A stretch of DNA of 64,000 nucleotides from NCBI GenBank assembly GCA_032718475.1, contig JAUCBJ010008367.1, forward strand, positions 1 to 64,000, in the 5' to 3' direction. Source of the stretch: Nemertoderma westbladi. Taxonomy: Eukaryota > Animalia > Xenacoelomorpha. Below are positions 5,211 to 60,676 of the stretch, in pieces. Position 1 is the stretch's first letter. Each line of letters starts with the position of its first letter. Below the pieces are notes generated by a model that searched no databases, was not told the origin of the DNA, and was given only the letters and a program-made list of their open reading frames with translations. The translations under genes and the position numbers were made by a program.

Positions 5211-5287
5211 CCGCTCCCAGAAAATGGGATTTATTCTATAAAATATAAAAAATCACAGTTTCTAAATTATAAAAATACTCTAAACAG

Positions 5288-27000: not shown

Positions 27001-28813
27001 TTATTAATTAATCTGGACACCCCCCAGTCGGGGTAAATGGGAAAAACCTAAGTAATTATATATTAAATTGCACGGAATCTAAAATTTATAAATTATTAAA
27101 AATATTAATATATGGTCTAAAGTAATTAGTTATTGAGAGGATAAGGTGGATATTGTTGGGCATTTGTCGCAGACTAGGGCATGGTATCGGTTCTTTGCGG
27201 ATTGCAGACAGAAACGACATATACAGTCAATACATGGATCGTGGTAGGATTTATTTTCACACAGCTTGAAATGAAACCCGTGTGATGTGGTTCTTGTTGC
27301 TAGGTGACGGTGTCGTTGGCCGCTGCGTTTCCAGCTAGATGATTGGAACGCAGGGCCCAGCTGGTATTGTTCTGCATTGAAATTTGCATTGCGATCGTTT
27401 CTGGAAGTGTTCTACTGTTCTAGAATTGCTGGGTTAAATATGCCTGGGAATTTAAGAACAATGTCATTAGTTAAGGTTTCTTCGTTGATTAATTTCAAAG
27501 CGAGCGTGGAGGATGAGGAGATGTGTAGGCCGAGTAACCGTTTTATAAATGTAGATTTTATTTTGTCGATTTCCTTTAGTTGGGGCAGTGTAAGCAGGGG
27601 ACCAAACTCGGATATTGCGTACGTTGTCATTGGGAAAATCTTCATTTGAAATATTTTCATTCCGGTTTGTACAGAAACTAGATACAGGTTTTTAAGAGAG
27701 CCAATGGCGGAATATGCCTTTTCCTTTTTTGCTTTAATGTGCTTTGTGAACGTCAGAGTTGGTTGTAGGGTGAGTCCCAGATACTCGTAATGGTCACAGA
27801 TTGTTACAGATCGCCTTGTAAGAAACCGAGTATTTGTCGGATTGCATTTGATAGACGTAACCCATCATAGATTTGTATGAAATTTACTTTCAGTATTGAT
27901 TTGATGATGTTGTATAGTTTCCCTTTGACACCGAAATCGTGGTAGAGTTTATGGAAAAAAAATATTTCGGCTGGTGGAGTCGAAGGCCTTCCGAAAGTCT
28001 ACGAAAGCCACATAGACTCGTCCCTCAGAGTCAACTAGAGACGAGATTTCGGAAAGGAGGAGTTTAATTGCGTCAGTTGTAGATTTGCCCGGGGTAAACC
28101 CAAATTGTTCTAGTGGTAAACGATGTAAGAGTCTGAGTAGTAAACGCTTGTTTATAATGGAGGTAAATATCTTGAGAATGACGCTTAGAAGCGCTATGCC
28201 GCGGTAATTATCTGGATTGGTAATTTTACCCTTTCCTTTGTATAGAACCTTGATGAAACTGGACATCCAAACTTCTGGGATTGAGCCTAGATTGAGACAC
28301 GTGTTATAAAGTAGGACTAAGAGGTGAATAATAAACGGTAGTCCTTGTTTAAGGTGTTCGTAGTAAATACGATCGGGTCCGCTAGCTTTACGGTTAGCTG
28401 CGTGGTTAATAGTATTTTCTACTTCAGCGGCCGTGATTGGGGCATTATACCATTCATCACTGTTGGTTTCATAATTTGATGTTTCTGGGATGTCGGGAGT
28501 ATTTAACTGGTCATTTAAGTGACTTAAAAGATTCTCAAAATGAGTTTCAAGTTTATCCATTGGTATAGGTGCTACATTGTTTGGTTTGCCTTCTCTCAGC
28601 AAAGTCCATGGTGTAATTTCAGTTTGAGCTATACGTTCTAGAAGGCGATCTTCCTCATAAATTTCACGTTTGTATTTCAGCAGTTTTTTGTATTCACGGC
28701 GTGCTTCCCAGAAAATGTCTTTGTCAGTAGTAGAGAAATTCCTTTTTGAGAACAAATGCAGCATGTGTACTTTGCGGTCACGACATTCGTTGTTGAACCA
28801 TGGTTTTCCGTTT
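27001..28813 (-). mobile_element. Non-LTR retrotransposon (LINE), 5'-truncated, with RT core deleted and a C-terminal Cys/His domain
   Basis: KASGPDRI, NYRGIALL, QFGFTPGKST, FVDFRKAFDS and GFLQGD jump directly to YEYLG, so no YADD motif. C-terminus reads HGFHFKLC...YH...CICRFC...YHALVC. 14-bp TSD GATTTTCCCCTTTA at 26987-27000 / 28814-28827. Confidence 0.85.
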
Positions 28814-28879
28814 GATTTTCCCCTTTAGAGGATACAATTTTTCTCGCGTCGAAAGCCCCCCTATATGTCTTCTTGATGT

Positions 28880-29366: not shown

Positions 29367-29616
29367 GATAACAAAGGAATCATCCGAGCTGTTGCAGGTT
29401 GGATAGGCATATTTATTCAGCAGCTCATTATAGCATCTTATAATTCATTTGCTTTAAAGATTAATGTCTACGACATGCTATTTTCTCAATAAGAAATCCT
29501 ATAAATATTATATTATATTTTTGACAAAGAGTTGGATTATAGGCGAAAATTAAAATGGATTAATTATTTATGCGTGTATACCATATCGAACCTTTTACGT
29601 AGGTAAATTTACCGCA

Positions 29617-29767
29617 TGACGGATGTTGAGCTGGGGTCCATTAAATATAAGCGTGGTTATGCAAATCAGTATATTAGTCAGACAACAGTATATATGATCG
29701 AGCAAACATTAGGCCTAATCTAAACAGAAATTGGGTAGTCCAGTACATAAAACAGAAGTACTACACA
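29617..29767 (-). repeat. Gypsy 3' LTR
   Basis: 150/151 identical to 35761-35911. Confidence 0.95.
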
Positions 29768-30446
29768 TACTTATTCCCAAGGGTTGCCAGGCAACCAGTT
29801 ATACAACTAGAAAGCCAGCAAGCTGGCTGGAAGGAGCCCGGGGGAAAAATCCTAGCCAAGACTATTACAAAGAACTATGTCAGTCAGCAGTAAGTAAACT
29901 AAAATTGTCTAAACTGCAAGGCGTGAGGCTAGCTGACTTTGTGGCTCGCCCCACATAATAAAAAATGCAACTTAGCTACCACTAACAAAAATATAATATG
30001 AAGCAAATAATTTCATTACCAAGAACGTTTACAAGATATAAGATGCGATTACCGAATATTTATAAAAAATGCCCATGATGCACAACCAGATAAATAACAA
30101 CGAATAGAGCCAAATAACAAATTTAGTTTCCTTCTATAGGTATTACCCCGTCGTCAAGCGGAATATCTCTTCCCAGTGAATTCTATGTGAATATGTAATA
30201 TAGGTACTCCTTAGGCGGTAGGCCAGAGCGGGCTCCTTAAATACATGCAACTACTGTATTATAGTGTAGGTCAACTATAAAACATTTTGCAATCCACAGT
30301 GAGTATCGACTGCAATAGGACACAACACACTGCTTTGTGTAACTAAAATTCATTCTCCTGATCCACCCCCTAACATAGCAGAGTGAGTAACCTTATTGTA
30401 GATATACCCTTAGGAAGCACTGGGAGAGCAATCAGCTTATGGGGTA

Positions 30447-30649
30447 ATACATTAGAAACCAACAGCTTATGTGTGAGTAAACATTGCCTTTCCTTATAGC
30501 CTACTAGTAAAACTTGGCAACCAACACGTTTTTCTATGACTGTGTATATACATTAGAAACCAACAGCTTATGTGTGAGTAAACATTGCCTTTCCTTATAG
30601 CCTACTAGTAAAACTTGGCAACCAACACGTTTTTCTATGACTGTGTATA
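30447..30649. repeat. Two-copy 101-bp tandem duplication in the Gypsy 3' noncoding region
   Basis: ATACATTAGAAACC...CTATGACTGTGT starts at 30447 and again at 30548. Confidence 0.9.
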
Positions 30650-31198
30650 ACATATTAAGCCATATTTCATCATGAACACCAGCTGTTATTTTACCATTGC
30701 TTTTAATTTCGCGACAAAACAATGTCAAAAAACTAAATATATCGAATACCACACATAGAATCGATCTGAAATTTTGTAACGCGATTATGAACCTCAAAAG
30801 CAATGTACTTGCAAAATTTCATCAAAATCGCCAGGCAGGAAGTGCCTTAACCTAGATAATTATCAGTCAGTCAGTGTCAGTCAATGTAATGTATCCTGAA
30901 GATTCTTACAGTAAGTATCCCGCTGTCAAGCGGGCTCCTAATAATATAGTGACATGTGAAGAGATGTGTTACTCTGCAACCATGTAAACAAAGGAGTTTG
31001 CAAAATAAGTTTATAGGGGGTAATGGAATATAATTAAAAATACTATAATCAAATAGGTTGTTATTGAGAAAATTTTTTCATTTTGGGTGACTTGACTATT
31101 CGTTATTCTCCTGTTCTTTCAAGTTGCGGTGCAGTAAAAATAGTTATTTGAAACCTAATGGATAAAAGGTGGTGCGGCTTCCGGATTGTATCGCCGTG

Positions 31199-34100
31199 TT
31201 ACAGATCCGGAAAGCCATAGCGTTGGGGTGGTCGTATTTCACGTCCAGAACGGGTAGTTGGGTGTTCTGGTTGGCTCGTGCGGGGTGTTGCGGTCCGTTT
31301 GACGATATCGGACCAGGTCGGGGCCGACGCCATGGGTGGGGGTGTGGGTTCTGGGGTGACTACGCGGCTGGGTTCGGGGTTTGGTGGGGGTGCTTTGGGA
31401 GCATTCGGGGTGGGTATCGTGGGCCCACCTAACGAGGTAGTGCGTGGGCGGAGTAAGACTCGGTTTCTCCGGAGGACGCGGCCACTGTCCTGGCGAACCA
31501 TATAGTCATGGTTATCCAGCGCCTCCACTACTACCCCCTGTCCTGTCCAGCGCTTGGTGTCGGCGTCCTGGATGATAACGGGTGTCCCTATGGAAATGAC
31601 CCGGAGGGGGCGAGTGCGTTGGTCATAGGCCGCACGCAGGTTAGATTTGGTTTGTTCCGCGACCTCGTCGAGCTCCTGGAAGCACTTCCTCCATTTGGGG
31701 TCGAACGAACTGAAGTGGGCGGGCAGGGCCTCCCGTATATTGCACCCGTAGAGGAGTTCCGCTGGTGAGCGACCTCCATAACGCGAGGTGTTGCGGAACC
31801 CAAGGACGCCCTGGGCGATGCTGTCGACGTCATGGTTAGCACCCCGGACGATTCTCTTCATCGCCTTGACGGCAGATTCGGCATGGCCGTTAGTGCGAGG
31901 CAAGTGGGGCGACGATGGATTGAGGTGAACTCCCCAGTTTTTCAGGAAAGTCTTTACGGCCTCCGAGTTGAACTGGGGACCACCGTCTGGGTGGAATTCC
32001 AGAGGGACGGCAGTGGCCAGGAAGAGGAGTCGGAGGTTTGTAATGATGGCTGCGGACGTAGTGTCAGAGCCGAGGCGGGCTAAAGTGGGCCATCCAGTGT
32101 ACTCGTCGGTGGCCACCATGTAGTGGATGCCGTCGGCTACGAAGAGGTCAGCATGGATCCTCTGGAACGGGCGGGTGGCGTCCGGGGTTCGTTGGAGGGG
32201 TTCCGGTGCCTGGGATGGTAGGGAGGATTGACACGACTGGCATCGTTCGATAGCAACGGCGATGTCGTTAGATATGGTGGGCCACCAGACGGACCGACTA
32301 GCACGCTCCCGGGTTTTATTGAGCCCTTGGTGGGCGGCGTGTAGTAGACGAAGGGTGTTGTGGCGTAGTTCCTTCGGTATGTAAAGTTGTGGTCCACGAA
32401 GTATGATGCCATCGTGGACCATGAGTTCAGAGCGGTGCTGAAAGTATGGGCGTATATCGTCGTTCGTGATATTGTGGCGGGAGGTTGGCCAGCCATCCCG
32501 TATTGTGGCGAGGAGTGCCACATAAGTTGGGTCGCGATTCCCCATGGAACGGATCTCCTGTAGACGGGCGTCCCGGGCGTCGATTGTAAGGGTTGTCTGG
32601 GCAATGGCCGCGGAGACAATGAACTCCCGGTCACTGTCGTCGTCGCCAGTGAGTACGAGGTCATCCGGGGTAGGTTTGTGCCGGGGGGAGCGCGAGAAAG
32701 CGTCGGCGACGAGGTGCTTGGCGCCCTTTTGGTGGCGGGCAGTGAAGTTGAAACGCAAGAGGGCTGTTTTCAACTTCAGGAGCCGGTCATTGGACACTTG
32801 GTCTAAACGCCTGTCATTCAGGATGGGTATAAGGGGGCTACTGTCGGTAACCAGTTCGAAGTGGTTTAGACCATCCAGGAAGTAGCGGCACTTGTGTGCC
32901 GCCCAGGCTGCACCGAGGGCCTCCAGTTCGGCCATCCCAGACCAGTTTGCCTCGTGCTTGGCGAGGGTCCGAGAGCCGCACTGGATGGTAAGCCAGTGGT
33001 TTGAAGAGGGGTCCCATTGTCGTAGAAGGAAGCCGATACCATTGAGGCGCGAGGCATCAGTTAGGAGTTCGGTTCTTCTATCGGGATGAAAGCCCGAGAG
33101 GTAGGATGGGCTGGAGAGGGTGGCCCGGGTGGCCTCGAATGCGTCCTGGTGCTGTGGCAGCCAAACCCAGGCGGCGCGGTCCGTATTAAGGCTGCGGAGT
33201 GGCTCGACGAGTTTGGAGATTTCGGCCGTCGAATTTCCCAGCTGTTGGGCAAGGCCGAGGAAGGAGCGGAGGTCCCGGCGGTTGTTAGGGACCGGGAAGT
33301 GGCGGAGATCTTCAGTAAGGGTGGGGTCGATCCGATAGAGTCCGTGGCTGACGAGGTAGCCGCCGAAACGGACCTTGGGGAGGCAGTACTGAACTTTATC
33401 GGTGTTCAGCGATATGTTGGCAGTGTCGCACGCAGCTAGGACCTTGGCAACTGCCTCGGGGTGTTCCTCGGCGCTGTCTGTATATATAATGACGTCCTCC
33501 ACTATGCGCCCAATGTTGGGTATTCCGTGGAGGGCCCGGGCCATCCTGGCGTTAAATACGTCAGAACTGCCATGCCACCCCATCGGCATACGGCGGTATC
33601 GGAAGCGGCCGCGGGGGGTGGCGAACGTGGTGAGTCGGCGACTGGCGAGGTCTAGTCCCACCTGGTGAAATCCCTTTAGGCCGTCGAGGACAGTGAAATA
33701 GCGCGCTGACGTGGGGATTTTAGAGATGACGTGAAAGGGGGAGGGGGAGAAGTAACTCGGGCGGATGGTGGCTTTATTTAATTCCCGTAAGTCGACCGTT
33801 ATGCGGACTTTGGTGGGGTCACTTTTCTTCCGCGTAACGACCATCGGGCTAAGCCACTCGCCCGGGTTATTCTCATCACCGGCGGGCTCAAGGATGCCCA
33901 TTGCGATCTGGGCATCGAGTTCCCGATTGAACGCGGCCTCCAAGTTTATCGGAATAGCTCGGTTCGTGTACGATTGGTGTGGTTGGACACCTGGGATGAG
34001 CTTTATAGTAAGTTCCCCTCCAGTCATCACTCGGCACTGCCCTGATAGAGGACGAGGGAAGCGGCGATGGAGGGCTTCCCAGTCAGTCAGGGTGGATGAT

Positions 34101-35678
34101 GTTGGGGTATGCGGAGTATGGGGTAGGGTTTGTGGTGGGTAGATAGGGGTTGGTGGGTTAGCAGTTTTAGGCGGTGGTGGTTTGTGGGTGGCATTTGGTG
34201 GCAGTTGTGTGGTGGGCTTGGTTTGCTCGATCGAGTTCACTGTTGCGGATAAGTTGCCACCTCGGAGGATGGGACTCCGCAGGATTCCCAGGGTGAAGCA
34301 CACCCGTCGCGAGAGGAGGGGTTGTTGCAACCCATCCAGGACCCAGAGGTCGGTTGTACAGGCTGTGCCGAGGGCGGTGCACTGGAGGGTGGCATTGAAT
34401 ATCCCCTTAAAAGTCCAACCAGCGCGGCTCCCATTTGCGAGCCGAGGCGCCTGTGGAGTGTCGGATTCCCTGTGCCCCGACATTGGGTTGCCGTCGGGGT
34501 GGCGGAGGTTCTCGAATCGGCCCCCGAACGCTCGGTAGATTCGCCAAGGGATAGTCGTTACGTTGGCTCCGGAGTCCGGGAGGAATTGTAGCTCCGGGAT
34601 GCCACGGGTGGGGTCCTTGGTGACCTGGAAACCGATAGTCACAGTCTCCAGGGGTTCTAGTCTCTCGGTAGCGGAGACGGCCGGAACGGCGTCAAAGTTA
34701 AGGCCGTCCAATATGGTGGTCCATATTTGGGCATGGTAAGTGGACTCATTGGTGTGCCGGAGTTCGGCTGGTTCCTGGTCCGTGGAGTTTGTCTGTGGGT
34801 CTCGAGTGGCGCCCATTGGGCGGCTGCGGCACATACGGTCGTAGTGCCCAACCTGGTTGCAGTGCCGGCAGCGGGCTGTGGCACCCGGGCAACGTTTGCC
34901 GGACTGATGCGGTGGATAACCGCATTGGGGGCACTTGGAGCTGGCGATGGGGCGCGCCTTGGGCGACCCTTGGGGGCGCCGAGGTAAGGCTGCAATACGG
35001 TTGGCGGCGGCGGCAGCGAGGGGCTGTGGTGGGAGACCAAGTGACGCCGCGTCTTTCCTGGCTGACCAGACGGCTTGGGAGAGCCGGAGGGCGTCACTGA
35101 GGGAACAATCGTTGGGGAGTCGTAGAAGTTGTTCAGTAACTTCCTTGTCCCCGAATCCCGAAATGAACTGATCCAGGAGTCGGTCTTCTTGGTGGGCCTC
35201 CTTGGATGCAAGTGGGGTAAAAGCACATTTGGTGGCCAGGTCCCTAAGGGCGACGAGGAACGACTCGGGACTCTCCTCTGGGAGGCGGTGGCGTCGGGCC
35301 AGTTGTTGTCGGTGAACTCGTCGGTTGGTTCCCCCATCGATATGTTGTCCCAACCGGTCGATCACCACTTCGGGATTCGCGTTTTCCTCGGCAGTAAGGG
35401 CGAGCCCCTTGACTACGGCGTTTGTGGCGCGAGAGAAGGCCGTTGTAAGAGTCGCACGGTGGAGGTGTAACGTGGATCGTTTAAAGTCCTCGGTAATCGC
35501 ATCGACGGGGGGTCGTTGCCGGGTCGGATATATAGAGGTTGCGGAGTCCGGATGTGGCGAGAAAGGCGTTCCATTCGTCTTTCCAGAGCTCCCAAGTTGC
35601 CTTTTCCGATTCGATATCGAAGGTGGGCGGGGAGCTACGTAGCACGAATATATGTGGGTTGCGTGGATCTGTTGCCAT
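31199..35678 (-). CDS. Gypsy gag-pol polyprotein with one frameshift near 35510
   Basis: Gag N-terminus MATDPRNP...PPTFDIE..TWELWKDEW is in the 35481-35678 frame and the rest is in the 1502-aa ORF frame. Double knuckle CPQCGYPPH...CRHCNQVGHYDRMC, protease PDSGA, RT LDGLKGFHQ/RMPMG/IVED, RNase H TDAS, integrase H-H-C-C and DGGPQF. Confidence 0.88.
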
Positions 35679-35750
35679 ATCCGGATATCAGGGGATTGAA
35701 CAGTCAAACTGTGGTAGACCGTAGGTCCGGATTATCAGCGTGTCCGTAAA

Positions 35751-35760
35751 CACTGCGCCA
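35751..35760 (-). promoter_or_regulatory. tRNA primer-binding site (TGGCGCAGTG; tRNA-Ser-like by recollection)
   Basis: TGG directly follows the 5' LTR on the minus strand. Confidence 0.8.
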
Positions 35761-35911
35761 TGACGGATGTTGAGCTGGGGTCCATTAAATATAAGCGTGG
35801 TTATGCAAATCAGTATATTAGTCAGACAACAGTATATATGATCGAGCAAACATTAGGCCTAATCTAAACAGAAATTGGGTAGTCCGGTACATAAAACAGA
35901 AGTACTACACA
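35761..35911 (-). repeat. Gypsy 5' LTR
   Basis: Adjacent to the PBS and followed by TSD CCGCA. Confidence 0.95.
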
Positions 35912-37264: not shown

Positions 37265-37771
37265 AAATAATATTATTTAGAAATAAACGTTTAAGTTACA
37301 ACGGAATAATATTATTTAGAAATAAACGTTTAAGTTACAACGGAATAATATTATTTAGAAATAAACTTTTAAGTTACAACGGAATAATATTATTTAGAAA
37401 TAAACGTTTAAGTTACAACGGAATAATATTATTTAGAAATAAACGTTTAAGTTACAACGGAATAATATTATTTAGAAATAAACGTTTAAGTTACAACGGA
37501 ATAATATTATTTAGAAATAAACGTTTAAGTTACAACGGAATAATATTATTTAGAAATAAACGTTTAAGTTACGACGGAATAATATTAATTAGAAATAAAC
37601 GTTTAAGTTACAACGGAATAATATTATTTAGAAATAAACGTTTAAGTTACGACGGAATAATATTAATTAGAAATAAACGTTTAAGTTACAACGGAATAAT
37701 ATTATTTAGAAATAAACGTTTAAGTTACAACGGAATAATATTATTTAGAAATAAACGTTTAAGTTACAACG
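37265..37771. repeat. 39-bp tandem array, ~13 units
   Basis: (GAATAATATTATTTAGAAATAAACGTTTAAGTTACAACG)n with few variants and no spacers. Confidence 0.95.
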
Positions 37772-38696
37772 ATCCACCATATTGATTTTTATCGCAAGCT
37801 CGATTGCCGCTTTTCTTACAGATCTGCCAATTAACTAGCTGGTGGAGCTTGCGCACCGCGAAAGAAGCTCTCTAACTTCAGACGACTGTTCAACTGTCCA
37901 CGTCTTCGTTCAAGTTACACTCAAACTAATGTATATACATCAATAATGTATATAACATAAATGACCTTTATTGGCTTTATTATGTTCTCTGAGTTAATGA
38001 CTGTTAGGACTGCTTACCTTAAAAGTCACTATCTAACTATGTATGTATGTATATAGGGTGAACTCCTCTGAAGGTATAGTTTGAAATATATATATAGCTA
38101 TGTATAGGTAGTTTCGAAAAAATTATTAAGGTTTCTTTTTATTTCGAAAATTGCCCCATCTTAACACGAAAATTTCCGAAGGCTCAATGATAGCTCAATA
38201 TTAGTTTTGCATGCTTCGCTCGCCCCTGCCCAGACCTCCCCCCCACCCCCCCCCACCCCACCACCCCCCACCCCCCCACCCCCCCCCCCCCCCCGATTTA
38301 CAATTCAAGACTACTACGCCACAGTATGTAATAGGGGAATTGGAGAGGGGGCTCCCTTCCAGGTGGGTCCCAGGCCTCCCACCGGCTTAATACGTCCCTG
38401 AAAATAAGCTGCTGCTGTTTTGCGACTAAAATTCACATTTTATTAGCAATACGCTGTTCTACTCCAAAGCAATAGTAGGGAGTAAATATTTTGCAAGTCT
38501 TCCTTGAACAAAACTCGCGAAACATACGCCCTAATGCGTTTGGTTTCGGTACAACATCATTACTTGAGATGTGACCAATAGAAATGGTTTTCCTTGTTCT
38601 AATACAGCTGGCCCCGTTGTTCAAAAGGTAAACAATGACAAATTTGACTTATGATCTAGTGATGTTTTTGCAATCCTCTTCTTAGAACTCACCAGG

Positions 38697-39859
38697 TGTA
38701 AAGGCTTTTGCGGAATTAGCCGGTTATTTTCCCCGTAAAGTACTCTGTAGTTGGTTTAACAGGCATAAAAGGCCGTGTCCTTACTGTACTGGTGTTTTAG
38801 AGGACATAAAAGCCATTTCTTCTGTATGTGTACTTTAGCGGACATAATTAGCAATTCTATGACGCAATACGCCAGATCCTCTTGAAACAGTGTAGCTACC
38901 ATGACGACGGCTAACAGCTGATGCTGTACACGTGGAGCTTTTTCTTTGTTCTCTGTTCCTTCTTTGTTCGGTCGACCAATCAGAGCGTTTTTTGCCTCTG
39001 TGTTGGAGATTGTATACGGAAACTCGTGGAGTTGAGTCAGTATGTGATTTTGTCCACAGCCAAGAACACCGGCTTTGGAACCTCCGTGTTTCAGTCTTTA
39101 GCCCAACATTAGTAGGCTTAATTATAGAACGTATATCTGTTATCTACCAAATCATAACATACATATCATAACTCATATCAACACCTTAAACTTTGTACTG
39201 CTATTTACTGTCGGTTATTCATTATATTTGTTGATGGAATATTATATTTGGAATACTGATAAATAATCAGACACCCCAATCTTCTTGATATACTAAAGGT
39301 TAGAGAGACCGGTTACATATAACGATTGCGACTTACATTAAGTGGTTTGAAGTGAATCTAATGCTATTTTATAGGCCCTACATGTATTGTCTGTTGTTCT
39401 CTTTATATGTGACTAAAATTAGTGAAGGTCGGCAGATCAGTGTGCAGCATTGTGCAGTATTGTGTATGATTGTGACTGATAACAAAGCATCTCCTAAAGA
39501 ATGCGCCATATACGTGAATCTATAGCCATCCCGTTGTGTCTAGTTTAAGTCATAACTCTGTTTACATATTTAGAGCGCCACGTCCTAAAGGAACTGTTAA
39601 TATTTCCCGAAAGTGAATAATATTTGTCAGAGATTATATATATTACGATCAGTCGAATAATACAGTAGGCCTACCCCGCAATACGGTTAGGCTTCCGAAT
39701 CCAGTCTCCCGGGTATATCCAGCGGGTGAATGATCGCGCATAGACTGGCTTCGGCTAATGTAGTGTATCAAATACTTGTCATAGGCTAAAGACGATCTAT
39801 TATCTAGAAGACATCCCAATTTGGCAGGTTAAACTGCTAAAGGTCTGAAAGCGCGAACA
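38697..39859 (+). repeat. 5' LTR of BEL copy B (1163 bp)
   Basis: TGTAAAGGC...GCGCGAACA; near-identical to 56233-57412 apart from one short segment. Confidence 0.96.
39132..39143 (+). promoter_or_regulatory. Putative self-primer / transcript 5' end (TATATCTGTTAT)
   Basis: Exact reverse complement of 39860-39871; homologous site in all four LTRs. Confidence 0.6.
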
Positions 39860-39871
39860 ATAACAGATATA
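39860..39871 (+). promoter_or_regulatory. Non-tRNA primer-binding site (ATAACAGATATA)
   Basis: Abuts the LTR terminal CA, has no TGG, and pairs with 39132-39143. Confidence 0.65.
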
Positions 39872-40138
39872 GCTTCTGTATTGCAGTAGGCAATAAAGCT
39901 GAAGTACCGGACAACCGGTACCTAGTAGGCCTGACTACCTAACCACCCGGACCGGTACCTACAGCAGTACAGGTACAGCAGTATTATTCGATTTTGATAA
40001 TTATATACCGGTAGGCCTTAATAATTAATCAGGGACTGCAGCCCTGGTTTTTTATTGAGATTTTACTTATTTCTGTCAGTTTTATTTACTTGTAGGTTAA
40101 TATTGAGCAGAAGACGTGTAAGCCTGCCCAGATTGTAC

Positions 40139-40718
40139 AGATAATTTGTAGGCTGGACTGTTGTCTGACTGTTGTTAAGTCTGAAGGGACTGTAGTGTGT
40201 GTAGAGCGTATGTCCGAAAAAGTACTAGTTAGGAAAGTAGGGGCTGCCAGTGCTGTGAGGTGAACCCCCTCGAAAGAATAAGTCGTACTACTCGGTTAGA
40301 ACGCATACTAACTAACCATTTCGGAGTCTGCATATACTGTAGTTTATTTAGGCTTGATAGTAGTCTGCCAGCGTTTGGTCTGTACTTTGTTTGTGTAGTC
40401 TGTACGGGTAGCGTAATATTTCTTATTTAGATAATTTGTAGGCTGGATTGTTGTCTGGCTGTTGTTAGGTCTTGAGAGATTTCGGTGTGTGTAGAGTGTA
40501 TGTCCGATAAAGTGCCAGTTGGGAACGTAGGGGCTTCCAGAGCTGTGAGGTAAACCCCCTCGAAAGAATAAGTCGTACTACTGGGTTAGAACGCATACTA
40601 ACTAACCATTTCGGAGTCTGCATATACCGTAGTTTGTTTAGGCTTGATAGTAGTCTGTCAGTATTTGGTCTGCATTTTGTTTGAGTAGTCTGTACGCGTA
40701 GCGTAATATTTATTATTC
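40139..40718 (+). repeat. 290-bp tandem duplication in the BEL leader (single copy in C)
   Basis: AGATAATTTGTAGGCTGGA... starts at 40139 and again at 40429. Confidence 0.9.
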
Positions 40719-42166
40719 AGAGTTTATGCGATTATTCGCAACATTCATATCCCCAAGTTTATTCCTACAGTAATTGTGCTTGTTATATATACCGTTATAG
40801 TTAAACTAACCCCGGTACTACATCAGGGCTGCTTGGCGTAGGTAAAGACTGGTGATTTTGTGCCCCGGTCACTCCAGCAGATACCGTGGTTCTTTTAGCT
40901 GTTCAAGTATTTTTAACTACTGATTATTTGTTGTATAAGTACTTGTACCTAATTTAGGGTTTAGTGTACAGTGCTTTCCGAAGGTAATTAGTGTGTAGGC
41001 AGTATATTTGTGTTGTAAAGTGGTTAATAGGCACGTTGGTTCTGGTAGACCGCGGTAATTAACTTCTAGGTAGGAACACTCCGTGATACATAACGTAGTA
41101 CTTATAGCGCCACGGCTATAAGTCGTCAGACGGTGGTATTTTTCTATCTGGACAACGCAGTATATTTACTACTACTTATTATTTTCAAATACCGTAGTAA
41201 CCTGTCCGTTGTAATAACCAGATATTCTAACCCTTTGTTAGGCTGGTTAGTAGACTTCTTGTAAAATTACCCTAAAAATTCGTACTTGTAATTTTTGTGT
41301 TTATTTAGAGATTGTAATCTCACCCAGAATTGTACGTAATTTGTAGTATTAAGTAACTTAGGTAAATTAGAATTATTTGTTTTAGTGTCCAACAAGTAAC
41401 ACTTCACTGAGAGCGCACAGCTTCTGTGTAGTGACTCCCCCCAGAAATAATAACATTTATTTCAAATATTGACAAAACCCATTTTAACGGGTATATATAT
41501 TATAAATCAACTCAAACGATTTATAAATAGTAGGCCTGCCATACATCAATTAGGTCTAAATATCAGTTGGACTACTGCTCAAATAACGGTAATAAAGTAA
41601 GTAAAGTAACCAAGTAACCCCTAAAAATTCAGAAATTCAATTATTTAAAATAATTGACATACCGGTATTTACCATAGGCTTATTATATTTATTTCTATAA
41701 ATTTTAGGCTGAAATTATACCGGTATTCTGTAATTAATTCTAGTCTGTAATTATACTTATATATATACATTATAAGTGTAAGCTGTATACCGGTATTCAC
41801 GATAGGCCTATTATATATTTAAAAATTTAGGCTGAAATTATACCGGTATTCTGTAATTAATTCTAGTTAATAATTATACTTATATATACTATAGGTGTAA
41901 GCTGCATACCGGTATTCACGATAGGCCTATTATATATTTATATATACTTGTGCTGAAATTACATACCGGTATTCTGTGACAAATCTAGTCTGTGACAATA
42001 CTTATATATATACTATAAGCATACCGGTATTCTAATATATTATATATATATTACGCTACACTGAGTAGCAGTATCGGTAATTAATTACTAGGCTAACGGT
42101 GATACTGAATTACTAGACTTGCTTAAACTGTAATATAGCAGTAGGCATTCAACTGTACAAACCAAC

Positions 42167-45100
42167 ATGTCTGACACAAAGCAAAACCTGTCAGACAGTC
42201 TCCTAGATACAACCATATGTGACCCAGACAGGAGTGTGGAACGTGTAGGACCGAAGTTCAACTCACCTCCTACTGTAAGAAAGATCATCCCTCCCGTAGT
42301 AATATCAGACCCTAGGCTAGTCCAACATCGTAGGTCTATCATAGGCACTCGAGCTCAGGTCAAGCGGGACCAAGAAGCAGCGGAACAGCAACAACCCGCG
42401 AGCCAAGAACTTATTTCTCAACGGCCCGACAGCTCCAGTAGTGAGGATACTGTAGAGCTGACACCCGAGCACGGAGCAAAGATGACAGATGCGGTTTATT
42501 CGGATCCCCTTCTCATCCTTCCTGCAGCCGTACTCACTAGGTTATTGATTGCGGTGGAAGAACACCAGATCGATTGGGCGAGAAATAAGCGATCGACTAA
42601 AGATAGTTATGCGGGATACACAAGGGAAGAACTGAAGTCTATTGTCGAGTCGCAATGGAACTTCCCCGGACCCGGACTCCCGTTTGATTTATCAGAAGCT
42701 GCCTGGGAAGACATGCACAGGATGGGAGTAACCAAGGAAATCATCGATCCAGCTGTGTGGAAGAGGTCCGCAGCCGGATACGTACAGGGATTCTTCAGCT
42801 CCATGGAGCGATTAGAAGAACAACTGTTTCAACAACCCCAAGGACCTCAAGAGTAGGGACAGCTGCTTTATCAAGTTAGAGAAAGAATTCTACGAATCAG
42901 GCTAATCTTATCGGCCTTTGAGGAGGCTTCTAAAAGAAGACAAGACACGTCGTTGCAAGTTGCCGTAAAGACTTGGTTTCAACGGGTGAGTCTCCAGGTT
43001 CAAGGAACGGCTCAGTGGAAAGCCCAGCTGGATGAGCGCTCAACCCATGGAGAATCAACAGACGCTACTTTTTCCCAAGTGGAAAGTGAAGCGACGGCAG
43101 AGAAACCGCATAAGAGGGATGCCATTGAAATCTATCTGTCAGACTATCAACGCTTTTTAGGTGATGAAGAGTTGAGGAGAAGGCTAGATGGACTTAGCCC
43201 TAATAGTGAAGGAACCAAGCTTGTGTTGGACGCAATCGATGTGGATATGAGAGCTGCGAACCAAGCTAGATTTGATGAACGCCTCCGCATCACTAGAGTC
43301 CAAGAAGAACAAGTGAAGAAAAAACGTATAGAAGACAGAAAGACAGCGGCAGTGGCAGCAGCAGTGGCAGCGGCAGAAGCAGAAAGAAAAGCGGCAGTGG
43401 CAGCGGCAGAGGCAGAGGCAGAAGCGGAAAGAAAAGTGGCAGCGGCAGCAGCCGAAGCGGAAAGAAAGGCGGCAGTGGCAGCGGCAGAGGCAGTAGCAGA
43501 AGCGCGGAGAGCTTCTGAAGAAACCACCCAATTAGAATTGGAAAACATTCAGGAGAATCAAGACTGCATAAATAAACAATTAACAGCTAGTAATATGCAG
43601 ATGATGAGTCGATCTACTCCCAAAAGACAGGGATATACATCATCTGAGGAAGGCGATACCACCGATACTGAAGGCGGAGGAAATAGATCTCGTCTAAGCA
43701 GACGTAGAAGAATGTCCCACCGTCAGAAATTGCCTGATTTGCCCCCAGCTGTTAGAAGGCAACTAACTAACACAAATTTAGGTAGTACAGAACCCACAGA
43801 CCAAATAATTAAAATAGAAAGACTCCCTACTATAATAGATGAGCCTGAAATAATTAGGCCTGTTCCCGAAGCCACCCCTTCGGTGGTAGAGACACCTGTA
43901 CTCCCTGAACCTACCTCTAAATTCCCTCTGCACAGCACTAAGCTATCTGTGCCCCACAGAACCACCCTTGAAAATGTTCATGTCCTGGACTCCGAGCGAA
44001 ATATTAATGATTTGTCGCCCGTTGTCCCTCGTCCGCCCGCTACAACGTTGGCGGCTCCCGCTTCGGCGGTCGAGTGGGTGGATGAGAGACGACGGGGGAT
44101 GGATCTTCTGCTCGGGCAAATGCAGGAGACTGTTCAGCAATTCAAGGGCACAGTAAGGGAAAGTAGGTTAGAGTTGCAAGAAGTGCAGCAAAGTATTGCG
44201 TTAGAACGCGATAAATTAGTAAATACACAAAGAGGTATACCACCACCCCCTGTAACAATGTGTCAACCTGTTAGGTCTGAAGTATCTCATGCGCAAGGTG
44301 TGGAGCCTACACGCATATATACTGCTAGCGAAGTAGAAACTCCTATAGTGAACCCTATTAAGGGTAATTATAGACCTGTTGATAATGATATTCCCTATAG
44401 ACCTGATCATAATCCGAGAAATTTATATACCGATAACTCGATATTAAATAACACGATGGCCCAAGAAAGTTTTACGCGTCAAATGGCTAGAACCGAAGCC
44501 CGTCAAGCGGTAAAGGTGGGAGAGATAGTCAAGTTCAATGGAGATGAGATGAAATGGTTACCTTTTAATGAATATTATAAAGATAACATACAGAACTCTG
44601 TACTATCTAATGGAGAGAAACTTAGATTCCTCATCGAGTGCTTGGAAGGATCTCCCAAGTTAATGGCGTTAAAGTTTATTGGACATCCAGACGGATTAAG
44701 ACAAGTTTGGGATACACTAAACATCAGGTATGGTAATAGGAATAACATACCTAAATATTTGTATGCAAAATTAGTAGCGCCCCGAAAGTTCATTAGCAGC
44801 GGGATAATAGAGTTTTCCGATGAGATTCAAGAGATCTGTAGACAATTAGATTGGTTAGGTAAGTCTCATGAATATCAGAGTTCTATGGTTATTGGAGCCG
44901 TGGCTTCTACTTTACCGAAGGGTGGAGTAGGTACACGCTGGGATAAGAAAGTGTTATATATGATGGAACAACAACGACGAGACCCTACCATGGCTGATCT
45001 TATGTCATTCTTAGATGGAGAAGTGAAATTACAGCTCCTAAAACAGTCCAGAGAGAAGACACCGGAAAACAAGGTAAGTGAGAAACCCGTTTCTAGGAGA

Positions 45101-48100
45101 AAGGTAACACCAGTGTGTTATACAGACGACGGCGAAAGCCAGACTTCTCAAGGAGAGGATAGCGGGAAAGACACTGAAAGATCTTATTATGTCAATAAAA
45201 TGCCTAAAGAACAGGTAAGTAAATTCAAGTCTCGAACCAATGACAGGAGAGAACAGGTAAGAAAAACTCCTCCTACGTCTCCTAAGAGAATTCAGGTGAG
45301 AAAGCCCGAAGAAAGAATGAGTGTGCACAATGTTATTCAAAATAAGGTAAGTAACATCAAACCGAAATGTGCGCTATGTGATGGGACCCACCGTTTGAAT
45401 ATGTGTGATGAATTCCTGAAGAAATCATTAACGGAGAGACGGGAAGTCATGTGGGATAAGCGGTTGTGTTATAATTGCCTCAGACAAGGACACCAACGGC
45501 GAACCTGTTACTCCGACACAAGGTGTGCAAAGTGCGGTGCGAAACATCATATCTTGTTGCACACTGAATTTGAGCGAAACAGCCAGAGTCAGGTAAGTGA
45601 TTCCGAACTACATGTCCAATTCAGTGATGTGAACGACACTGACCAAAGTTCTGAGATGGAAGGATTCTATACAGATGAATTCTCCGACGAAGATGAATCC
45701 TGTTACATGATAAATACCGCAGTGTATCGAGCACTTACGTATGAAAAAGACACAGACAGCGACCTCACCCTAACTACTTCTGATCGACAACCATCTTGGA
45801 AAGCGCCACCTTCCAATGTAGGAATCCGAGAATTTCCTGTAGTACAGGTAAGGGTCCACGGACCTAAAAGGAGTTATGTAGTGAACGCCCTCCTTGACTC
45901 CGGTAGTACAGGAACATTCATCGACAAAGAACTAGCCGAAGACATCTTTGCTGGACAACCCTGCCGAACTAAGCTAAACATGTCAGGAATTATGCAGGTT
46001 TGGAAATCTACAGTAATAGCGGATTATTATGTAGGTGCGTTGTCCACCCCCCAGGATGAACTAGGAGAACATAGTATAAGGTCAGTAAAAATGGTGGCGA
46101 TAAAGAACTTCGCTACCACCCAAGTGGAACCTTATAATTGGGATGAGGACGATTTCACCCAGCAGCTTGAAATACCTAGATTCAACACCGATTACCCTGG
46201 AGTGCAAATACTCATCGGTCAAAACGCGCATGAAGCGCTCGAGACATTGGAGAAACGGCCTGCTCAACCGCAACCACTACAAGCTTATGCGGGAAGAACT
46301 AGAGTGGGTTGGTACTTTACTGGCCCTTCCCGTAGAACTCTCATGGAAAGATTACCGAAAGACCAGGTATATCAAGTAAGAGAATGGGAAGTCGAGGGCA
46401 GTGAGTTAGACGATCCAACTGAGGGAACACCATACTCCTCAGATAATGACGATGTCCACCAACTTTTCGACGAGGAGAATACCATCGATCTCCTTAAGGA
46501 AAACGAGACTTGGCAAAACCAAGTGAACTTATGTCAGCTCCTTCTTCCATCAGAACGAGACGACTATAACGACGAGCTTAATGACGTCATTGAACGTTAT
46601 AATGCCAAGACTCGGGATGAACACGCCGTACGATTCTTTACTCAAGAGGCTGTAGAGCCCAATTCCTACGATAAGGCCCTATCGTTAGAGGAAGAAAGAG
46701 CCAAGCAGATCCAAGAGACAACTACACGTTTTCTTAAAGATCAAGGTAGATATGAGATCAGTCTACCTTTCCGAAAGCGAGAACCAAAGTTCGTAAACAA
46801 CAGACCCTTGGCGGAGAAAAGAATTGCTCAACTACATCGACGCCTTACGGCAAATTCTTCAGCTAAAGAAATGTATCAAACGCAGTTGAAGAAATTTATT
46901 AGCAAGGGATATGCGGAGCTAGTACCGGAAGAAACACCTATAACTGAGAGAACGTATTATTTAACTCACCATTACGTTCCCAAACCCGGTAAACCCCATG
47001 AGGTACGAGTGGTGTTTGACGGCTCCGCCCTCTATATGGGCCAATCCCTTAATTCCAAATTGTTACCCGGACCCAACTTACTCCAATCCTTGTTGGGAAT
47101 ACTCTTAAGATTAAGACAATATTCAATTGCTTTCGCCTCAGATATAGAAGGCATGTTCTTACAAGTCAAGGCGCTGGATAGGGATCGAGATAGCCAACGA
47201 TTTCTGTGGTGGCCTGAAGGAGACCTCAACCAGAAACCGGTGGAGTACTGGATGACCATCCAGGCTTTTGGGATAATCTCAAGCCCTTCAAACGCCTGTT
47301 CAGTGGTGCGCACCACTGCGGATGACAACCGAGACGCCTTCTCTAAAGAGGTGATTGACAACATCAAGCGGGATATATACATGGACGACAATCTAAAGTC
47401 CCTTCCATCAGTCGAAGAAGCCATCGATGTCGCTAAAGGAACGGTAGAGTGCTTAAAAAGAGGTGGATTTCGATTAACTAAATTCACCAGCAACTCCCGT
47501 GAGTTTCTGGAGTCGATCCCGGTAGAAGATCGAGGAGCGAAAGACCTGGATCTAATAAAAGATGATCTCCCAGAAACTAAGACCCTTGGTTTGAAATGGG
47601 ACACAGAAAGAGATATCCTGTTTTTCCAACTAAAACAGCGAGATAATCCAGTTCGGACTAAATGGATTTGTTTAAGTATCCTGAGCACTTATTTCGATCC
47701 ATTGGGATTTATTAGCCCAGTTATATTGATTGCTCGGAGTTTAGTACAACAAATGTGGCTTGAAAACCACTCATGGGACGATCCACTTAAGGGAGAATTA
47801 TTAAAGAAGTGGATGAAATGGGAAGATTCTCTACCAGCCATCGAGAACTTTATAATTTCCCGTTCATATTTTGGTCATGTTCTCCCTACGTATTCCTATC
47901 AACTCCATGTGTTTGGAGACGCCAGCGATATGGGAATAGGTATAGTAGCCTACCTAAGGGTGGAAACTCCGGACGGAATCAAAGTCGCCTTGGTTACCTC
48001 TAAGGCATTGATAAACAATAAGTTGAAAGTTCCTCGAGCGGAGTTAAAGGCGGCTCTATACGCTACAGCCATCGGCCGGAATGTAACAGAAAAGATCGAC

Positions 48101-50263
48101 TATCCACTGGAGAAAACTGTCTATTGGACCGACGCTTTACTCGTGTTGGAGTATATAACCAATGAAGTCTGTCAGTTCAGCGTCTTCGTTACCAACAGAG
48201 TAGCCATTATACTCAGTCATACAATGATGGATCAATGGAGACATTGCCCCGGAACGATTAATCCAGCAGACATCGCCTCCAGGGGAGCAACTCCACAAGA
48301 ACTGGTAGACACTCCAGACTGGTTAGGTGGACCCGACTTCCTCTACAAAGAAGAAGAAGAATGGCCTCCTCATCTTACTACCACAGAGATTAGACAGGCC
48401 AAGGGAGCAGAGAAAGTCAAACGTAAAACTCGGGCGAGTAAATCGAAGTTATTCAAACCTATGGTAGATCTGTCTGTACTACATACTTCCGGAGACGACG
48501 CTTTGGATCAGAAACCCACAGCCACAAATAAGCTTGTTGTGGAAATCCGTGAGAAGGATTGGAAATCTGGAATACCAGACGTCTCGCAAGGACTCTCACC
48601 TCTTCTGCAGAGAGCGATACATCACTACAGTTCCTGGAATCGGCTCTGTAAGGCCATTACATATTTAAAGAGATGTTTTCACCATCACTACTCCGGGATG
48701 AAGACCAAAGGTGATACCGCTCCAATAACATCAGTGCAGGTCCATGTTATTAAAGATCTTCCCAAATATAAGATACCCGACAGGTTTCTGAAGGAGAAGA
48801 TCAGTTATCAGGAACATGAAGAAACCAACAAGCAGATGCTGAGACTCCTGCAATGCTATGAGGATTCCGATAAGTATTTCCTGTTGTTGAGAAATCCGCA
48901 GATACGCTTAAGGGATCGTTTCTCTAGCACAATGATAGATGGGTTGATATGTGTTGGAGGAAGATTAACGAATGCTCCATTATCCTTTGACACTAAGTTT
49001 CCCATACTCATTAGAAATCTTGAGATACCAGTCAAGATGATTGTAGATGTTCACAGCAAACTTTATCATGCTGGTAGAGAACGAGTTCTTAGCGAAATTC
49101 GAACTCGCTATTATTTTTATAAACCCCGTAGAGCTCTGAACCAAGTTCTTAGGAACTGCATACCCTGTAGGAAAGCATTCAGTAGGCCTTTAACACAGCG
49201 AGAGGCAGAATTACCTAGGGAACGAGTAAGCTTCTATGAACCACCCTTTACTAATACCGGTGTAGATTTATTTGGCCCTATTGAAGTATATCGTGCTAGG
49301 ACTATAGTCAAGAGATGGTGTGTCATCTTTGTTTGTATGACTTGTAGAGCTATCCATCTCGATATGGTGAACGATTTATCTACCAACAGCTTTCTATTAA
49401 GCTTACGACGACAGATCGCTCGCTTTGGCACTAGTAACACGATGAGATCTGATAAGGGAACAAACTTCATTGGTGCCAATAATGAAATCAAAGCTTACGT
49501 CAAAGATTGGAACCAAAGACAGGTGGACGATCAGCTACGAGTAACAGCGTCTAGCTGGACCTTCAACGCCGCCGACGCCCCTTGGTGGGGAGGAAGTTGG
49601 GAGAGATTAATAAGAAGTGTGAAGACCGCATTTCACTTTATAGTGCCTTGCCGCGCGTATCTCACCGACGAACTTTTGCGGACGTTAATGGAGGAAATCG
49701 CCGCCTATCTCAATGAGAGACCGCTTATGCCAGTCTCATCGAGTCCCGATTCCCTGGAAGCGCTAACACCCGCGCACTTCCTACTGAAGAAACCTGTAGC
49801 CATGCTCCCACAATCGGAAATCACAGACGGAGACGAATACTGCCGGCAAACTTGGCAACTCATGCAGTTGTTATCCCGTCGTTTCGCTGACCATTTTGAA
49901 AAACATTATCTGCCCACGCTACAACTTCGAACTAAGTGGTTTGCGCAGCAAGAAAACGTCAGCGCTGGAGACATGGTTCTTATTGTGGATGTAGATCTTC
50001 CACGTAAGCGGTGGCAGACAGGTCGTATCATCGAGACTCACATCTCGGATGATGGTTTGGTGTGATCGGTAGAACTCGTCGTCATGCGACGTAACTTCAA
50101 GAAACCGGGAATTGTCTTCGAGACACAGCAGCTCAATCGCCCAGTTGGTCGCTTATGTTTACTGGAAAGAGACAGAGAACTCTCCGGAAACTATGGGAGG
50201 CAAGATACTCTTCCCACGACCACCTCCCTAATCCAACAAACATCTAGGGACTCCCCAACTTAA
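42167..50263 (+). pseudogene. BEL/Pao gag-pol, single frame of ~2698 aa with two in-frame nonsense codons
   Basis: TAG at 42854 (CAG in A and C) and TGA at 50063 (CGA in A). Motifs: gag KFNGDEMKW, CALCDGTH/CYNCLRQGH/CAKCGAKHH, LLDSGS, YMDD, HVFGDAS, GVDLFGP, SDKGTNF, GGSWERL. Confidence 0.94.
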
Positions 50264-51899
50264 CAACGGCTGGAGTGGGTGTATGACTATATTTTATATT
50301 TGTTTTTATTCTTTTATATTTATGTATGTATTATTATGTAATTTTATTATAATCGTTTTCTTTAATTTTATTTAGTAGATTGTTATTTTAGCGATTATTT
50401 AGTAGATTAGTGCAATATATATTCGCCGTTTATTACTTAATTACTTACATATTATATATTTAGTGCGACGGCGAGAAATAATCCTTTTCTCCTTCCTTAC
50501 TGTCCGTATTACCTTACAAATACGTAACTACAGTAAGATGAAATGTCCGTACTTATTAAAGTACAATAAAGCTCCTACTATATTTAAGTATTATTGGTAA
50601 GCAGAGTATTAGGAATGCAAAATTCAGATCCTCGTGTCTCGGCTAAACCAAGCTCTGGGTAGACCTTGGAAACAACTTGCCTCTTCTCACTGACATTGCT
50701 TCGTGCGATATTGCTCTCATACCGTATATTAAATAATACATATAGTAGCGTGATGTCCTTTTAACAGTAGCGTACAACGCAAAATAAATCTGTTAAACTC
50801 TTTGAGCATCTGTAATTCTAGTCGATTAAGATATCGCGGCACCCACCGATATACTTGAAAGACAAAATTTTAGAATCAGTGGTTAACGTCCCCAGACAAG
50901 TTCTGGAATAAACTGGTGCCCATCCTAAATATTAATTATTAATATTTACAAAATCTGTCAAATTTTAGATCCTTTAAAATTCTAGTCGATTAAGATATCG
51001 TAGCACTTACCGATACTCTTAAAAAGACAAAATTCCTAGAATCAAGCATCCCAGTCCCCAGACACGTTCTGGAATAAAATTACGTCTATTTAACATTAAA
51101 TAATAAAATTTACGGGAATAAATTTAAATTCATATATTTCAATGAATTTAATAAATTGTCATTTTTATACAATTTATAACATTCCCAAAATTCCATTAAT
51201 TAATAGATCATGGGAGCGGAGATTCACTCTATTAAGTGTATTTGTGTGCGAGAATCTCCAATATATAGTCAATAGCCGATAAAATTCATAAAATCACGTA
51301 TAGAGAGGATATTGACCATTAAAGAATTACTATTAAATAGCATCCCAGATCTGTATGCATGAGAATTACCCTAATTCTACCGCTAGCTTTCCATAATGTC
51401 ACCATGGCAACAACCACGCTAGAATTAGAAGTGAGTTAAAAGAACAATAGAAAGCTTGCCCCATTGAATAGCATAGGGAATAAATAGCGCACTGCTAGTA
51501 TCCAAGGATACATAATAAATAAAGTGACATTCTGGAAGGTACTGACTAATGGACAAATGGCCCGAATGTGTACAGTTTGTGGCAGTTGTGTTGAATTTGT
51601 GCGTTCATAGGTGAATGTTACTGCTAAAGTGTGTTTACAGTAGCTAGTCGCAATTGTGAAAGTAGCCCTAACTCTCCAGAAAGAACCTGAAGTACATCTA
51701 AGCCTTTGGGACGGACAGTGGAGTGACTTGTGCCGGTTATCGTTGTCGTTGTGTAGCTACATCGTTGGCGAAAGCACAGCGACGACGGTACATCGGCGCT
51801 GAGGATCTTGCACTGTCCGGGGGCAAAAGAGGGGTAGGCAGCGACGCCCGCTAGCCTAATATATAAACTCATTATAATATTGATAAACTCATAGCAGAT

Positions 51900-54800
51900 A
51901 TGACTGAGTTGATAGAAGATGATCTTGGTATCAGAGAGCGATATACTCTACCTATACAAGCGTTTGTCGATAGCTTGATACGCGGCGACGCTGGTCCAAC
52001 TACTACGGAGGATGATGGTCGTTATATCGAACCGCCAATGTCCCAGGAGCAACTTACGCGTGAATTGGACTATCGAAAGTTCACCGCTCGCTATACGCAT
52101 CGTAATGGTACGTATATGGACTTCTTAACTACTGGCCATCCTATCGATTTACACGATACGGACGATGTAGATACCGAAAGGGAAATGGTTTTATTTAAAT
52201 ATCATACCCAGCGGAGTCGGAACGATAAACCGAGAATAGAACACGAGAACTCTATTCGAAACAGACTCGAAAGGGAAGACGTTGAAGAGCCAGATAAACG
52301 CAGTGACTTCAACGATTATCTGGAATTCCTGAGAGAGACATATCTCAATATTGCCAGCCAACAAAATCTCGAAACTCGATATCCTCAAGGTAAACATCAT
52401 GATCCTATGATAGAACTCAAACGACTCTATTTCACTATGATGTATCTTACCGCCGATCGACCGGTACCTGTCATCCCAGATAGCTTCGAACAGATGGAGG
52501 AATATTGTAAAACTGGAGAACGATCACCCGCGTTTCCCCTGCAGGACGTGCGTCTTTGGTATTACTGCGATGAATGCCCTAGACCCAATCAGCAAACGGA
52601 AAGACATAAACATCCGCGGAGACGTTGCGCTAAACACAGTTTTACCCGATATACTTATGGGAGTTTCGAGCGAAACCTGTTCGACGTATCCCCTACGGTC
52701 GCTCGACTCAAACGATCCTTGAATAAACCGATGATCAGAGTTCCGGAATACTCGGTCAGACCTCCTCATTCCTCAGTTAGACCTCAGACTCTTGATCCTA
52801 ATAGTATCACGGATCCTCCCGAACTGTACTCACTGTTCAAAGATCTAGTGTTACCCGAACAGTTGATCGGTGGCACTCCGGTAGTGGGCTCGCTAGATAT
52901 TCGCCAACCCTACCTAGCCGGATTAGGACGCGGTCATCTAATATCGCCGTTTAACCCATACAACCATCCCGGCTTCACCCTCGATCCAACCCGTTACGGA
53001 AGTCGAAGAGAGCGTCGTACGAAATGAGTTAGACGCTATTCAGCAGAAAATCGGAAAGGGAACTTACGATTGTTTGGAGAAACGTAAATTGCAACAACAA
53101 GTCCAAGCGGTGAAGGAATTAGCTTTACCTCAGTTCGATAGAGAAATACAAAATCTCGAGGAGGACATCGAACGTGGACGAACCTACTCTTTACAAGAGT
53201 TCCTAGATGAGCGTCTACAACAACAAGCGGAGGAAAATCAGCTCGAGGAGAGACATATAGAACTAGATGAGAGAGAAGAAGCAGCTTTAGTCCAACCCGA
53301 AGCTCAAATCCTTATGACGGATCTCTACTCTAAAACCATCCTTCATCCCTCGATGGTTCCCCATTTCGGAGACAAACTCTTTGCGACGGTACAACCCCAA
53401 CCGGTTGATATCAACCTAAGATCTCGAGATCTTATCGCTGACGCTCCCATGTTGCAGCATCCGCCCATCGAAGCCGCTCGTGTCGATGGTATACTCGTTG
53501 AACCTCCGGACAATAGAGCGGATCTTGTCCGTCGCATGGTACACGATGTTAACATACGCGCTAGACCTTTACCGGACTCGTTTTATGGGATCAAAGATCA
53601 CCCTTATTACGTCAATCTAACACAATATTACATGGTAAAACCGGAAGATCCTACACATAGTTTGAGGTTTCTACCACTAATAAATCCTCTCGATCTTGTC
53701 GAACTCGAACAACTGCAGAAACATCTGGATCAGTTAGTTAAAGTAAACTCATTTCGAAAACCATATAATGTTTCCAGAATAGAGAAAGAAACAATACCTC
53801 CGTATAATCTTGATGGATTCATCAAAACTCGTTTAGTACACTGGAATCTTGACGTGTTATTCGAGGAGGAAAGAATACAACGATATGGAGATGTGGAAAC
53901 ATATACTACGCAATATTTAAAGTATAGAGACCTACCTAATGCTAGCGAATGCGCTACCTTGTGGCATCCAGTGGGAATGACCCTCGAAAACGCCACTAAA
54001 GAGTGGAACAAGACTCTTAACGTTATCGAGATGTATGGAGTTGTCACTTACGACAACGAAGGTAGCGTTCCGGTTGGAGAACTGGGAACTACGCGGATGA
54101 TACACATACGAGGACTCACTGGTTCTACCCACGTATTTACTCGAGCGTGTTCCGATGTGATTGATTATTCTTTTGAAACTCTTACTGAGACACAAAAGAA
54201 ACTCCGACATGGACAATTCGAACTCGCGCAGCGTTACGTCATCGACACCGAGCGCAAACCGGCCATGTGTATCGATGGATCGATGTTACCCCAGCCCGTG
54301 CTCGAGATGTTGTTTAACGAAAGAATCCTTAAAATCGGCTCCACTGTTTATGGAGACCTACAAAACGACTTTCGGAATATGGAGAACATTCCATACCCTT
54401 TCGTTGATACTCAGCTGATTGCTCCCTGGGCAGAAGGCTGAGATTTCTTCCGCACTATGTATGCCAATACACCCAGCGGCATTACTAAAGTACAACGAAC
54501 CTCCATCGGACATCTTGCCTTTCAAGAATACGGATGGAATTTCAAGGTTGGAAATCCTATAAATTACCAACAAGTATATGGAGACCATTATTCTCGTTTA
54601 TACTTTGATGGACCATTGACCGCACCTGGCGCCGTGTATAGCTTTATGAGTGTTCCACTTCGTCCCTCCTTAGCTATATACACGATCTTTGAAAACGCAG
54701 CACTTGCCGGTTGGCTAGCCGATGTGTGCAGTCGTACCATACGCGCCCATCCCTTAATACTTGGAACCAAACTCGCCAAGTTAGATGAACACAATAAATT

Positions 54801-56154: not shown

Positions 56155-56232
56155 CTGTTTAGAGTATTTTTATATTTTAGAAACTGTGATTTGTTATATT
56201 TTATAGACTTAAATCCCATTTTCTGGGAGCGG

Positions 56233-59385: not shown

Positions 59386-59461
59386 CACTTATATTTAAAG
59401 GGGCACAATTTTGGTAAGCCGATATATTTCAGGCTCCCTAACGGGTCATATGCCGCACTAT

Positions 59462-60665: not shown

Positions 60666-60676
60666 ATAACAGTTAT
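60666..60676 (+). promoter_or_regulatory. Non-tRNA primer-binding site of copy C (ATAACAGTTAT)
   Basis: Exact reverse complement of ATAACTGTTAT at 59904-59914 in its own LTR. Confidence 0.6.

Follow-up and report, generated by a model that had tools for sequence, protein, structure and literature searches.

The family of copy B, a BEL/Pao element in the window (the whole 64,000-nucleotide stretch of Nemertoderma westbladi DNA that was analysed), probably primes minus-strand DNA synthesis with a piece of RNA derived from its own LTR; the probability is put at roughly 0.8. The initial annotation had proposed such self-priming, and the proposal is strengthened by variants in public contigs, by a conservation boundary in the LTR and by pairing across related elements. 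Judged from its sequence, the family has the central pairing of Tf1-type elements, yet lacks the tRNA site by which BEL/Pao elements are defined. The features concerned, by window position, are:

38692 to 38696, plus strand: target-site duplication CCAGG, 5 bp, repeated at 57413 to 57417
38697 to 57412: copy B, BEL/Pao element of 18.7 kb, delimited by its LTRs and target-site duplication
38697 to 39859, plus strand: 5' LTR of copy B, TG...CA, 1163 bp
38976 to 39041, plus strand: candidate promoter, with CCAAT at 38976, a TATA-like sequence at 39013 and TCAGT at 39037 to 39041
39132 to 39143, plus strand: LTR site complementary to the primer binding site (PBS), the predicted self-primer; also at 56668 to 56679 in the 3' LTR
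39145 to 39192, plus strand: hypervariable, A/C-rich, G-poor segment that begins just past the predicted cut
39860 to 39871, plus strand: non-tRNA PBS of copy B, adjoining the LTR
42134 to 50065, plus strand: BEL/Pao gag-pol frame of copy B, with DUF1759, protease, reverse transcriptase (YMDD), Peptidase_A17/RNase H, integrase and DUF5641
51867 to 56154, plus strand: three extra sense frames of copy B, 3' of the integrase
56225 to 56232, plus strand: polypurine tract, adjoining the 3' LTR
56233 to 57412, plus strand: 3' LTR of copy B, 1180 bp
59462 to 60665, plus strand: 5' LTR of copy C, with the site at 59904 to 59914
60666 to 60751, plus strand: PBS of copy C, in two copies (60666 to 60676 and 60741 to 60751)
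4039 to 16157, minus strand: copy A, 5'-truncated, with a 3' LTR at about 4039 to 5210 and a C-type site at 4776 to 4786
29615 to 35911, minus strand: Gypsy element with a TGG-type PBS, used as internal control

By its predicted proteins, copy B is a BEL/Pao element and not a Gypsy element. Its long frame has Pfam matches to DUF1759, Peptidase_A17, Integrase_H2C2 (a zinc finger) and DUF5641, the motifs follow the Gag-PR-RT-RH-IN order with Pao-type domains, acidic RNase H motifs are present, and the LTRs, polypurine tract and target-site duplication are those expected of the group. In domain content and domain order, in LTR length (about 1.2 kb) and in its polypurine tract, copy B agrees with the ICTV profile of the Belpaoviridae, which gives a genome of 4.2–10 kb and tRNA priming from an 18-nt tRNA PBS (PMC8742986), in line with the earlier remark that BEL/Pao elements are generally described as tRNA-primed. 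Copy B differs from the profile in its length of 18.7 kb, in having no PBS complementary to the 3' end of a host tRNA and in its extra 3' frames, which have no env-like match. Pfam gives no chromodomain in B, a mark of the Ty3/gypsy chromoviruses of the Tf1/sushi group. In the best 120 of 637 homologues the domains are the same and identity to B over the reverse transcriptase and RNase H is 38–44%; the named homologues among these 120 are from echinoderms, cnidarians, molluscs, a ribbon worm and a fish. Two in-frame stops (42854–42856 and 50063–50065) are found in the gag-pol frame of B; neither is present in A, and the first is absent from C. The three extra frames (386, 499 and 570 aa) contribute to the size of B and have no Pfam match over the cut-off. 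The last of them gives a weak zinc-knuckle signal (E 0.015), and its best matches in a protein-atlas search are at or below 0.85. Copy A is without the part that corresponds to 53272–55997 of B. The 2.3 kb leader of B contains tandem duplications, of about 290 bp at 40139–40721 and of 130–250 bp at 41658–42091. An Rfam scan of 38690–42200 returned nothing credible; the best E value, 0.46, is below gathering, and therefore no known ribozyme is indicated in this region.

The complementarity between PBS and LTR in copies B and C is real. All six motifs on which the initial annotation had built its case are present where it placed them, and the pairing is exact as claimed: directly after the LTR, 12 bases in B and 11 in C are complementary to a site within the LTR. 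No TGG occurs in the 26 bases after either LTR, in contrast to the Gypsy element, where TGG follows the LTR directly. The B 12-mer abuts the true LTR end, because CCAGG borders the LTRs on either side; 716 nt separate the site from that end. The single difference between the B and C motifs is present on both partners, so that its description as compensatory was correct, and copy A does carry the C-type site; A has neither a 5' LTR nor a PBS in the window and thus contributes a site alone, and C runs into the window end. When LTR bases were shuffled, 12 or more matching bases for B, and 11 or more for C, came up in 1 of 2000 shuffles in each case. The empirical control gives a weaker result: a match of at least 12 is found at 134 of 8958 window positions, the window being rich in repeats. 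The PBS of the Gypsy element pairs with its own LTR over only 4 nt.

In calculated duplex energy, the B site gives −22.8 kcal/mol with its own PBS versus −7.2 and −10.6 with the PBS copies of C; the C site gives −17.8 kcal/mol with its own second PBS copy, −13.5 with its own first and −15.0 with the PBS region of B, and outdoes the other windows of its LTR only narrowly (−13.4 versus −12.4). The LTR end and PBS of C are duplicated (60662–60751); a template switch is suggested by the better pairing of the second PBS copy with the sites of C and A. Seven more pairs are found upstream of the B duplex, an extension not above shuffles (P 0.215); upstream extension as a general trait was rejected, since no more than 2 of the 15 elements had P < 0.05 against shuffles. 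The single-strand minimum-energy fold of 39030–39900 is unremarkable (z −1.14). A splice-junction primer was sought in B and C, and none was found.

Do related elements keep the pairing? Metagenome and genome collections yielded 122 loci of related elements, 49 of them with a flanking direct repeat. The LTR end could be defined for 22 (L108 included); that of L042 is ambiguous, and the rest were left out. Eighteen of the 22 are without TGG and make up 15 families after three near-identical pairs were merged. A PBS–LTR pairing of 10–15 nt is present in 14 of these 15 families, with different letters, and the covariation called for in related families is thus seen. In two (L012 and L026) it is contiguous over 10 nt, as in B, and in 12 it extends over 11–15 nt but only across a GTRAG-AG junction, i.e. 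with a GT-AG intron removed; the remaining family, L085, pairs over 8 nt. Three of the families needed a wider search region, the LTR end of L005 is less certain, and the 5' LTR of L074 has one mismatch. The paired segment begins 0–3 nt past the LTR end in each of the 14 families that pair, as it does in B and C. When the PBS of one family was set against the LTR of another, 1 of 496 pairs reached at least 11. Three primer positions differ between L081 and L082, and all three are compensated. The four TGG elements that were scored pair over 6 nt or less.

A FastTree tree of 110 sequences, from which 13 loci with short segments (among them L108) were left out, has one split with SH-like support of 1.0 that places B and all 18 labelled non-TGG loci on one side and six TGG loci, for two of which the label was assigned by eye, on the other. 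The tree is without named BEL/Pao references (Suzu, Sinbad, Pao and others), its root is not fixed, and the branch of B is long. Many loci may share one host, and therefore the families are not to be counted as independent origins. Forty-three of the loci (L080–L122) come from genome records of bacteria and archaea, for the most part MAGs, and are likely host DNA in bins. One, L104, has both LTRs and is part of a Wolbachia chromosome record; it represents contamination or a real insertion.

Further copies were looked for in public contigs. Six runs carry all or part of the stretch, in each case as contigs, and four of seven listed runs (X1, X3, X4 and X5, the last tentatively an RNA run) were aligned. 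Among the matches listed, two PBS variants, 39864 C>A and 39865 A>G, occur in X1, X3 and X5 and not in X4. The partner changes, at 39139 and 39138 respectively, were predicted before the site region was compared. Among the 19 matches listed there, the 39138 change is present in one X5 contig and a C-type site in one X3 contig; the 39139 change did not appear. The predictions were borne out in part, one of two, and site and PBS are linked on one molecule in B and C alone. A search of metagenomes with one exact LTR pattern gave no matches, and no relatives were found in the viral contigs searched. The LTR core at 39544–39645 is the peak of contig depth in all four runs and has no Rfam match.

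Of interest is the segment that follows the site. In all four runs the contig match to B stops at 39144–39146 and continues as unrelated A/C-rich sequence. Among the four LTRs of the window, 7 of 72 columns are invariant in 39144–39193, versus 22 of 26 in the columns preceding it and 24 of 25 in those following it; the bin at 38994 comes next, with 5 of 25. The approximately 50 bases after the site are thus the least conserved part of the LTR. Of the 38 columns that differ between the 5' and 3' LTRs of B, 29 are in 39144–39192. Under self-priming, the template end and the strand jump would both fall at this conservation boundary. Template ends are prone to errors; a literature search on that point gave no match. 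An unstructured spacer maintained for its composition would fit the segment as well. The LTR pair of B is a mosaic: seven differences lie before the site, those 29 in the 50 bases after it and two in the last 670 bases, although the target-site duplication is intact. This pattern may come from gene conversion or from the use of two template RNAs.

How would the primer be made? In Tf1, according to the available text of PMC7175516, the transcript's initial 11 bases pair with the PBS, and cleavage by RNase H falls between bases 11 and 12; two further duplexes, forming a ‘pretzel’, are required according to the available part of a preprint (bioRxiv 10.1101/2022.12.06.519325). Likeness to Tf1, which the initial annotation had put forward, holds for the central pairing of 11–12 nt at the LTR end and fails for the two side duplexes, which in six of six tests were no better than shuffles (16–84 of 100 shuffles matched them). 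The candidate promoter, shared by B and A and missing from C, is the sole promoter-like set in B, and it suggests a start at about 39039, some 95 nt upstream of 39132. The start right at the site (39132) that the initial annotation had predicted is unsupported. Only 3–9 nt of the primer come from its first exon piece in the junction families, which may also point to a transcription start further upstream; from site to splice acceptor these relatives have 52–289 nt. The transcript would then begin at or upstream of the 39132–39143 site, which would be brought onto the PBS by folding of the RNA. The element's RNase H would cut after about 39143–39144, as in Tf1, and the reverse transcriptase would extend through the LTR up to the cut and then jump to the 3' LTR. 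As promoter and exon pieces point to an upstream start, the primer would be a piece that RNase H releases from the 5' part of the RNA, and it may exceed 11 nt. Its copying back into the PBS would keep site and PBS matched. Copy B would represent the intron-free form, and most relatives would form the primer by splicing.

An RNA primer of the element itself could also arise from a 3' end at the site, by a polyadenylation cut in the 3' LTR or as a short LTR transcript acting in trans, and not from an RNase H cut. Pairing and covariation are accounted for equally well in this way, and a repeat region of about 105 nt would result if transcription began at the candidate start, 39039. The sequence downstream of the site, however, is A/C-rich and not GU-rich. 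The B LTR has no AATAAA; among 15 elements AATAAA is found within 40 nt past the primer end in six and in no case within the 25 nt ahead of the primer, which makes a polyadenylated 3' end less likely as primer. This origin is considered unlikely. Quite unlikely is a pairing selected as an RNA structure for packaging, dimerisation or a translation switch, with a host tRNA fragment or another RNA as the primer. The motif is palindromic in C, but the B form is not, and the paired segment occupies the place of TGG in the pairing families as in B and C. The PBS, moreover, varies between families and within the B family, and a single host RNA could not track such changes. Chance pairing of AT-rich sequence, or a DNA transposon whose terminal inverted repeats would enclose 39132–39871, would suit a motif with A or T at 10 of 12 bases, TA at both outer ends in B and many equal matches in the window, but is very improbable: the right arm is outside an LTR whose end is set by the 3' LTR and target-site duplication, C lacks the TA ends, the pairing recurs in 14 of 15 families, and the cross-pair control largely refutes it.

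Self-priming by an RNA of the element itself thus remains the preferred reading. A broader scheme, to which about even odds are given, is that a BEL/Pao branch replaced tRNA priming by a transcript-internal self-primer, mostly built by splicing and ready-made in B, and that the hypervariability past the site is a mark left by cut and jump. Has self-priming been described for Ty3/Gypsy elements alone, as the initial annotation had supposed? In the available text of PMC4600332 it is described for the Tf1/sushi group and Tj1, but that of PMC6317226 also predicts it for the plant Tcn1 clade and for the TAR lineage of Ty1/copia (Houba, Osr-1), so that the supposition does not stand. The prediction there is based on pairing of at least 10 bp within 0–5 bp of the LTR end, the same type of sequence evidence as given here, in other superfamilies and hosts. 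Copy B shares with Tf1 and Tf2 (Schizosaccharomyces pombe), Tj1, Tosmo1–3 and the Tf1/sushi group the absence of a tRNA site, the presence of RNase H and a PBS of about 11 nt that adjoins the LTR and is complementary to an LTR segment; by Pfam it is not a member of that group. It differs from Tf1, whose primer is the first 11 nt of the RNA in the text available, in that the start may be upstream of the primer, in the 716 nt between site and LTR end, and in that its relatives split the primer by an intron.

No paper on self-priming in BEL/Pao elements was found in a literature search outside which lay Repbase, the full ICTV report, subscription journals and supplements. The words ‘primer’ and ‘PBS’ are absent from the main text of a BEL/Pao survey (PMC3118150), whose supplements, outside this scope, possibly list PBS types, and ‘PBS’ and ‘tRNA’ from the Sinbad paper (PMC554778); the available parts of PMC13524379, PMC3601003 and PMC8220671 have nothing to add. 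A self-priming BEL/Pao branch, if true, would extend the mechanism to a third LTR superfamily and suggest that dependence on tRNA was lost several times, and annotation tools that demand a tRNA site would under-call such elements. With an intron-free form in B and splice-built forms in its relatives, the origin of the primer and a gating of replication by host splicing would be directly testable.

Other repeats surround these copies. Copy A is bordered on both sides by one 20-bp satellite, partly inverted (3774–4039 and 16158–17288), and the Gypsy element has a 1510-aa open frame and LTRs that are 99% alike. At 37266–37771, 20576–23350, 27412–28824 and 58614–59546 lie a 78-bp tandem repeat and three LINE-like pieces of reverse transcriptase, all of them broken, and copy C starts within the last LINE-like piece.
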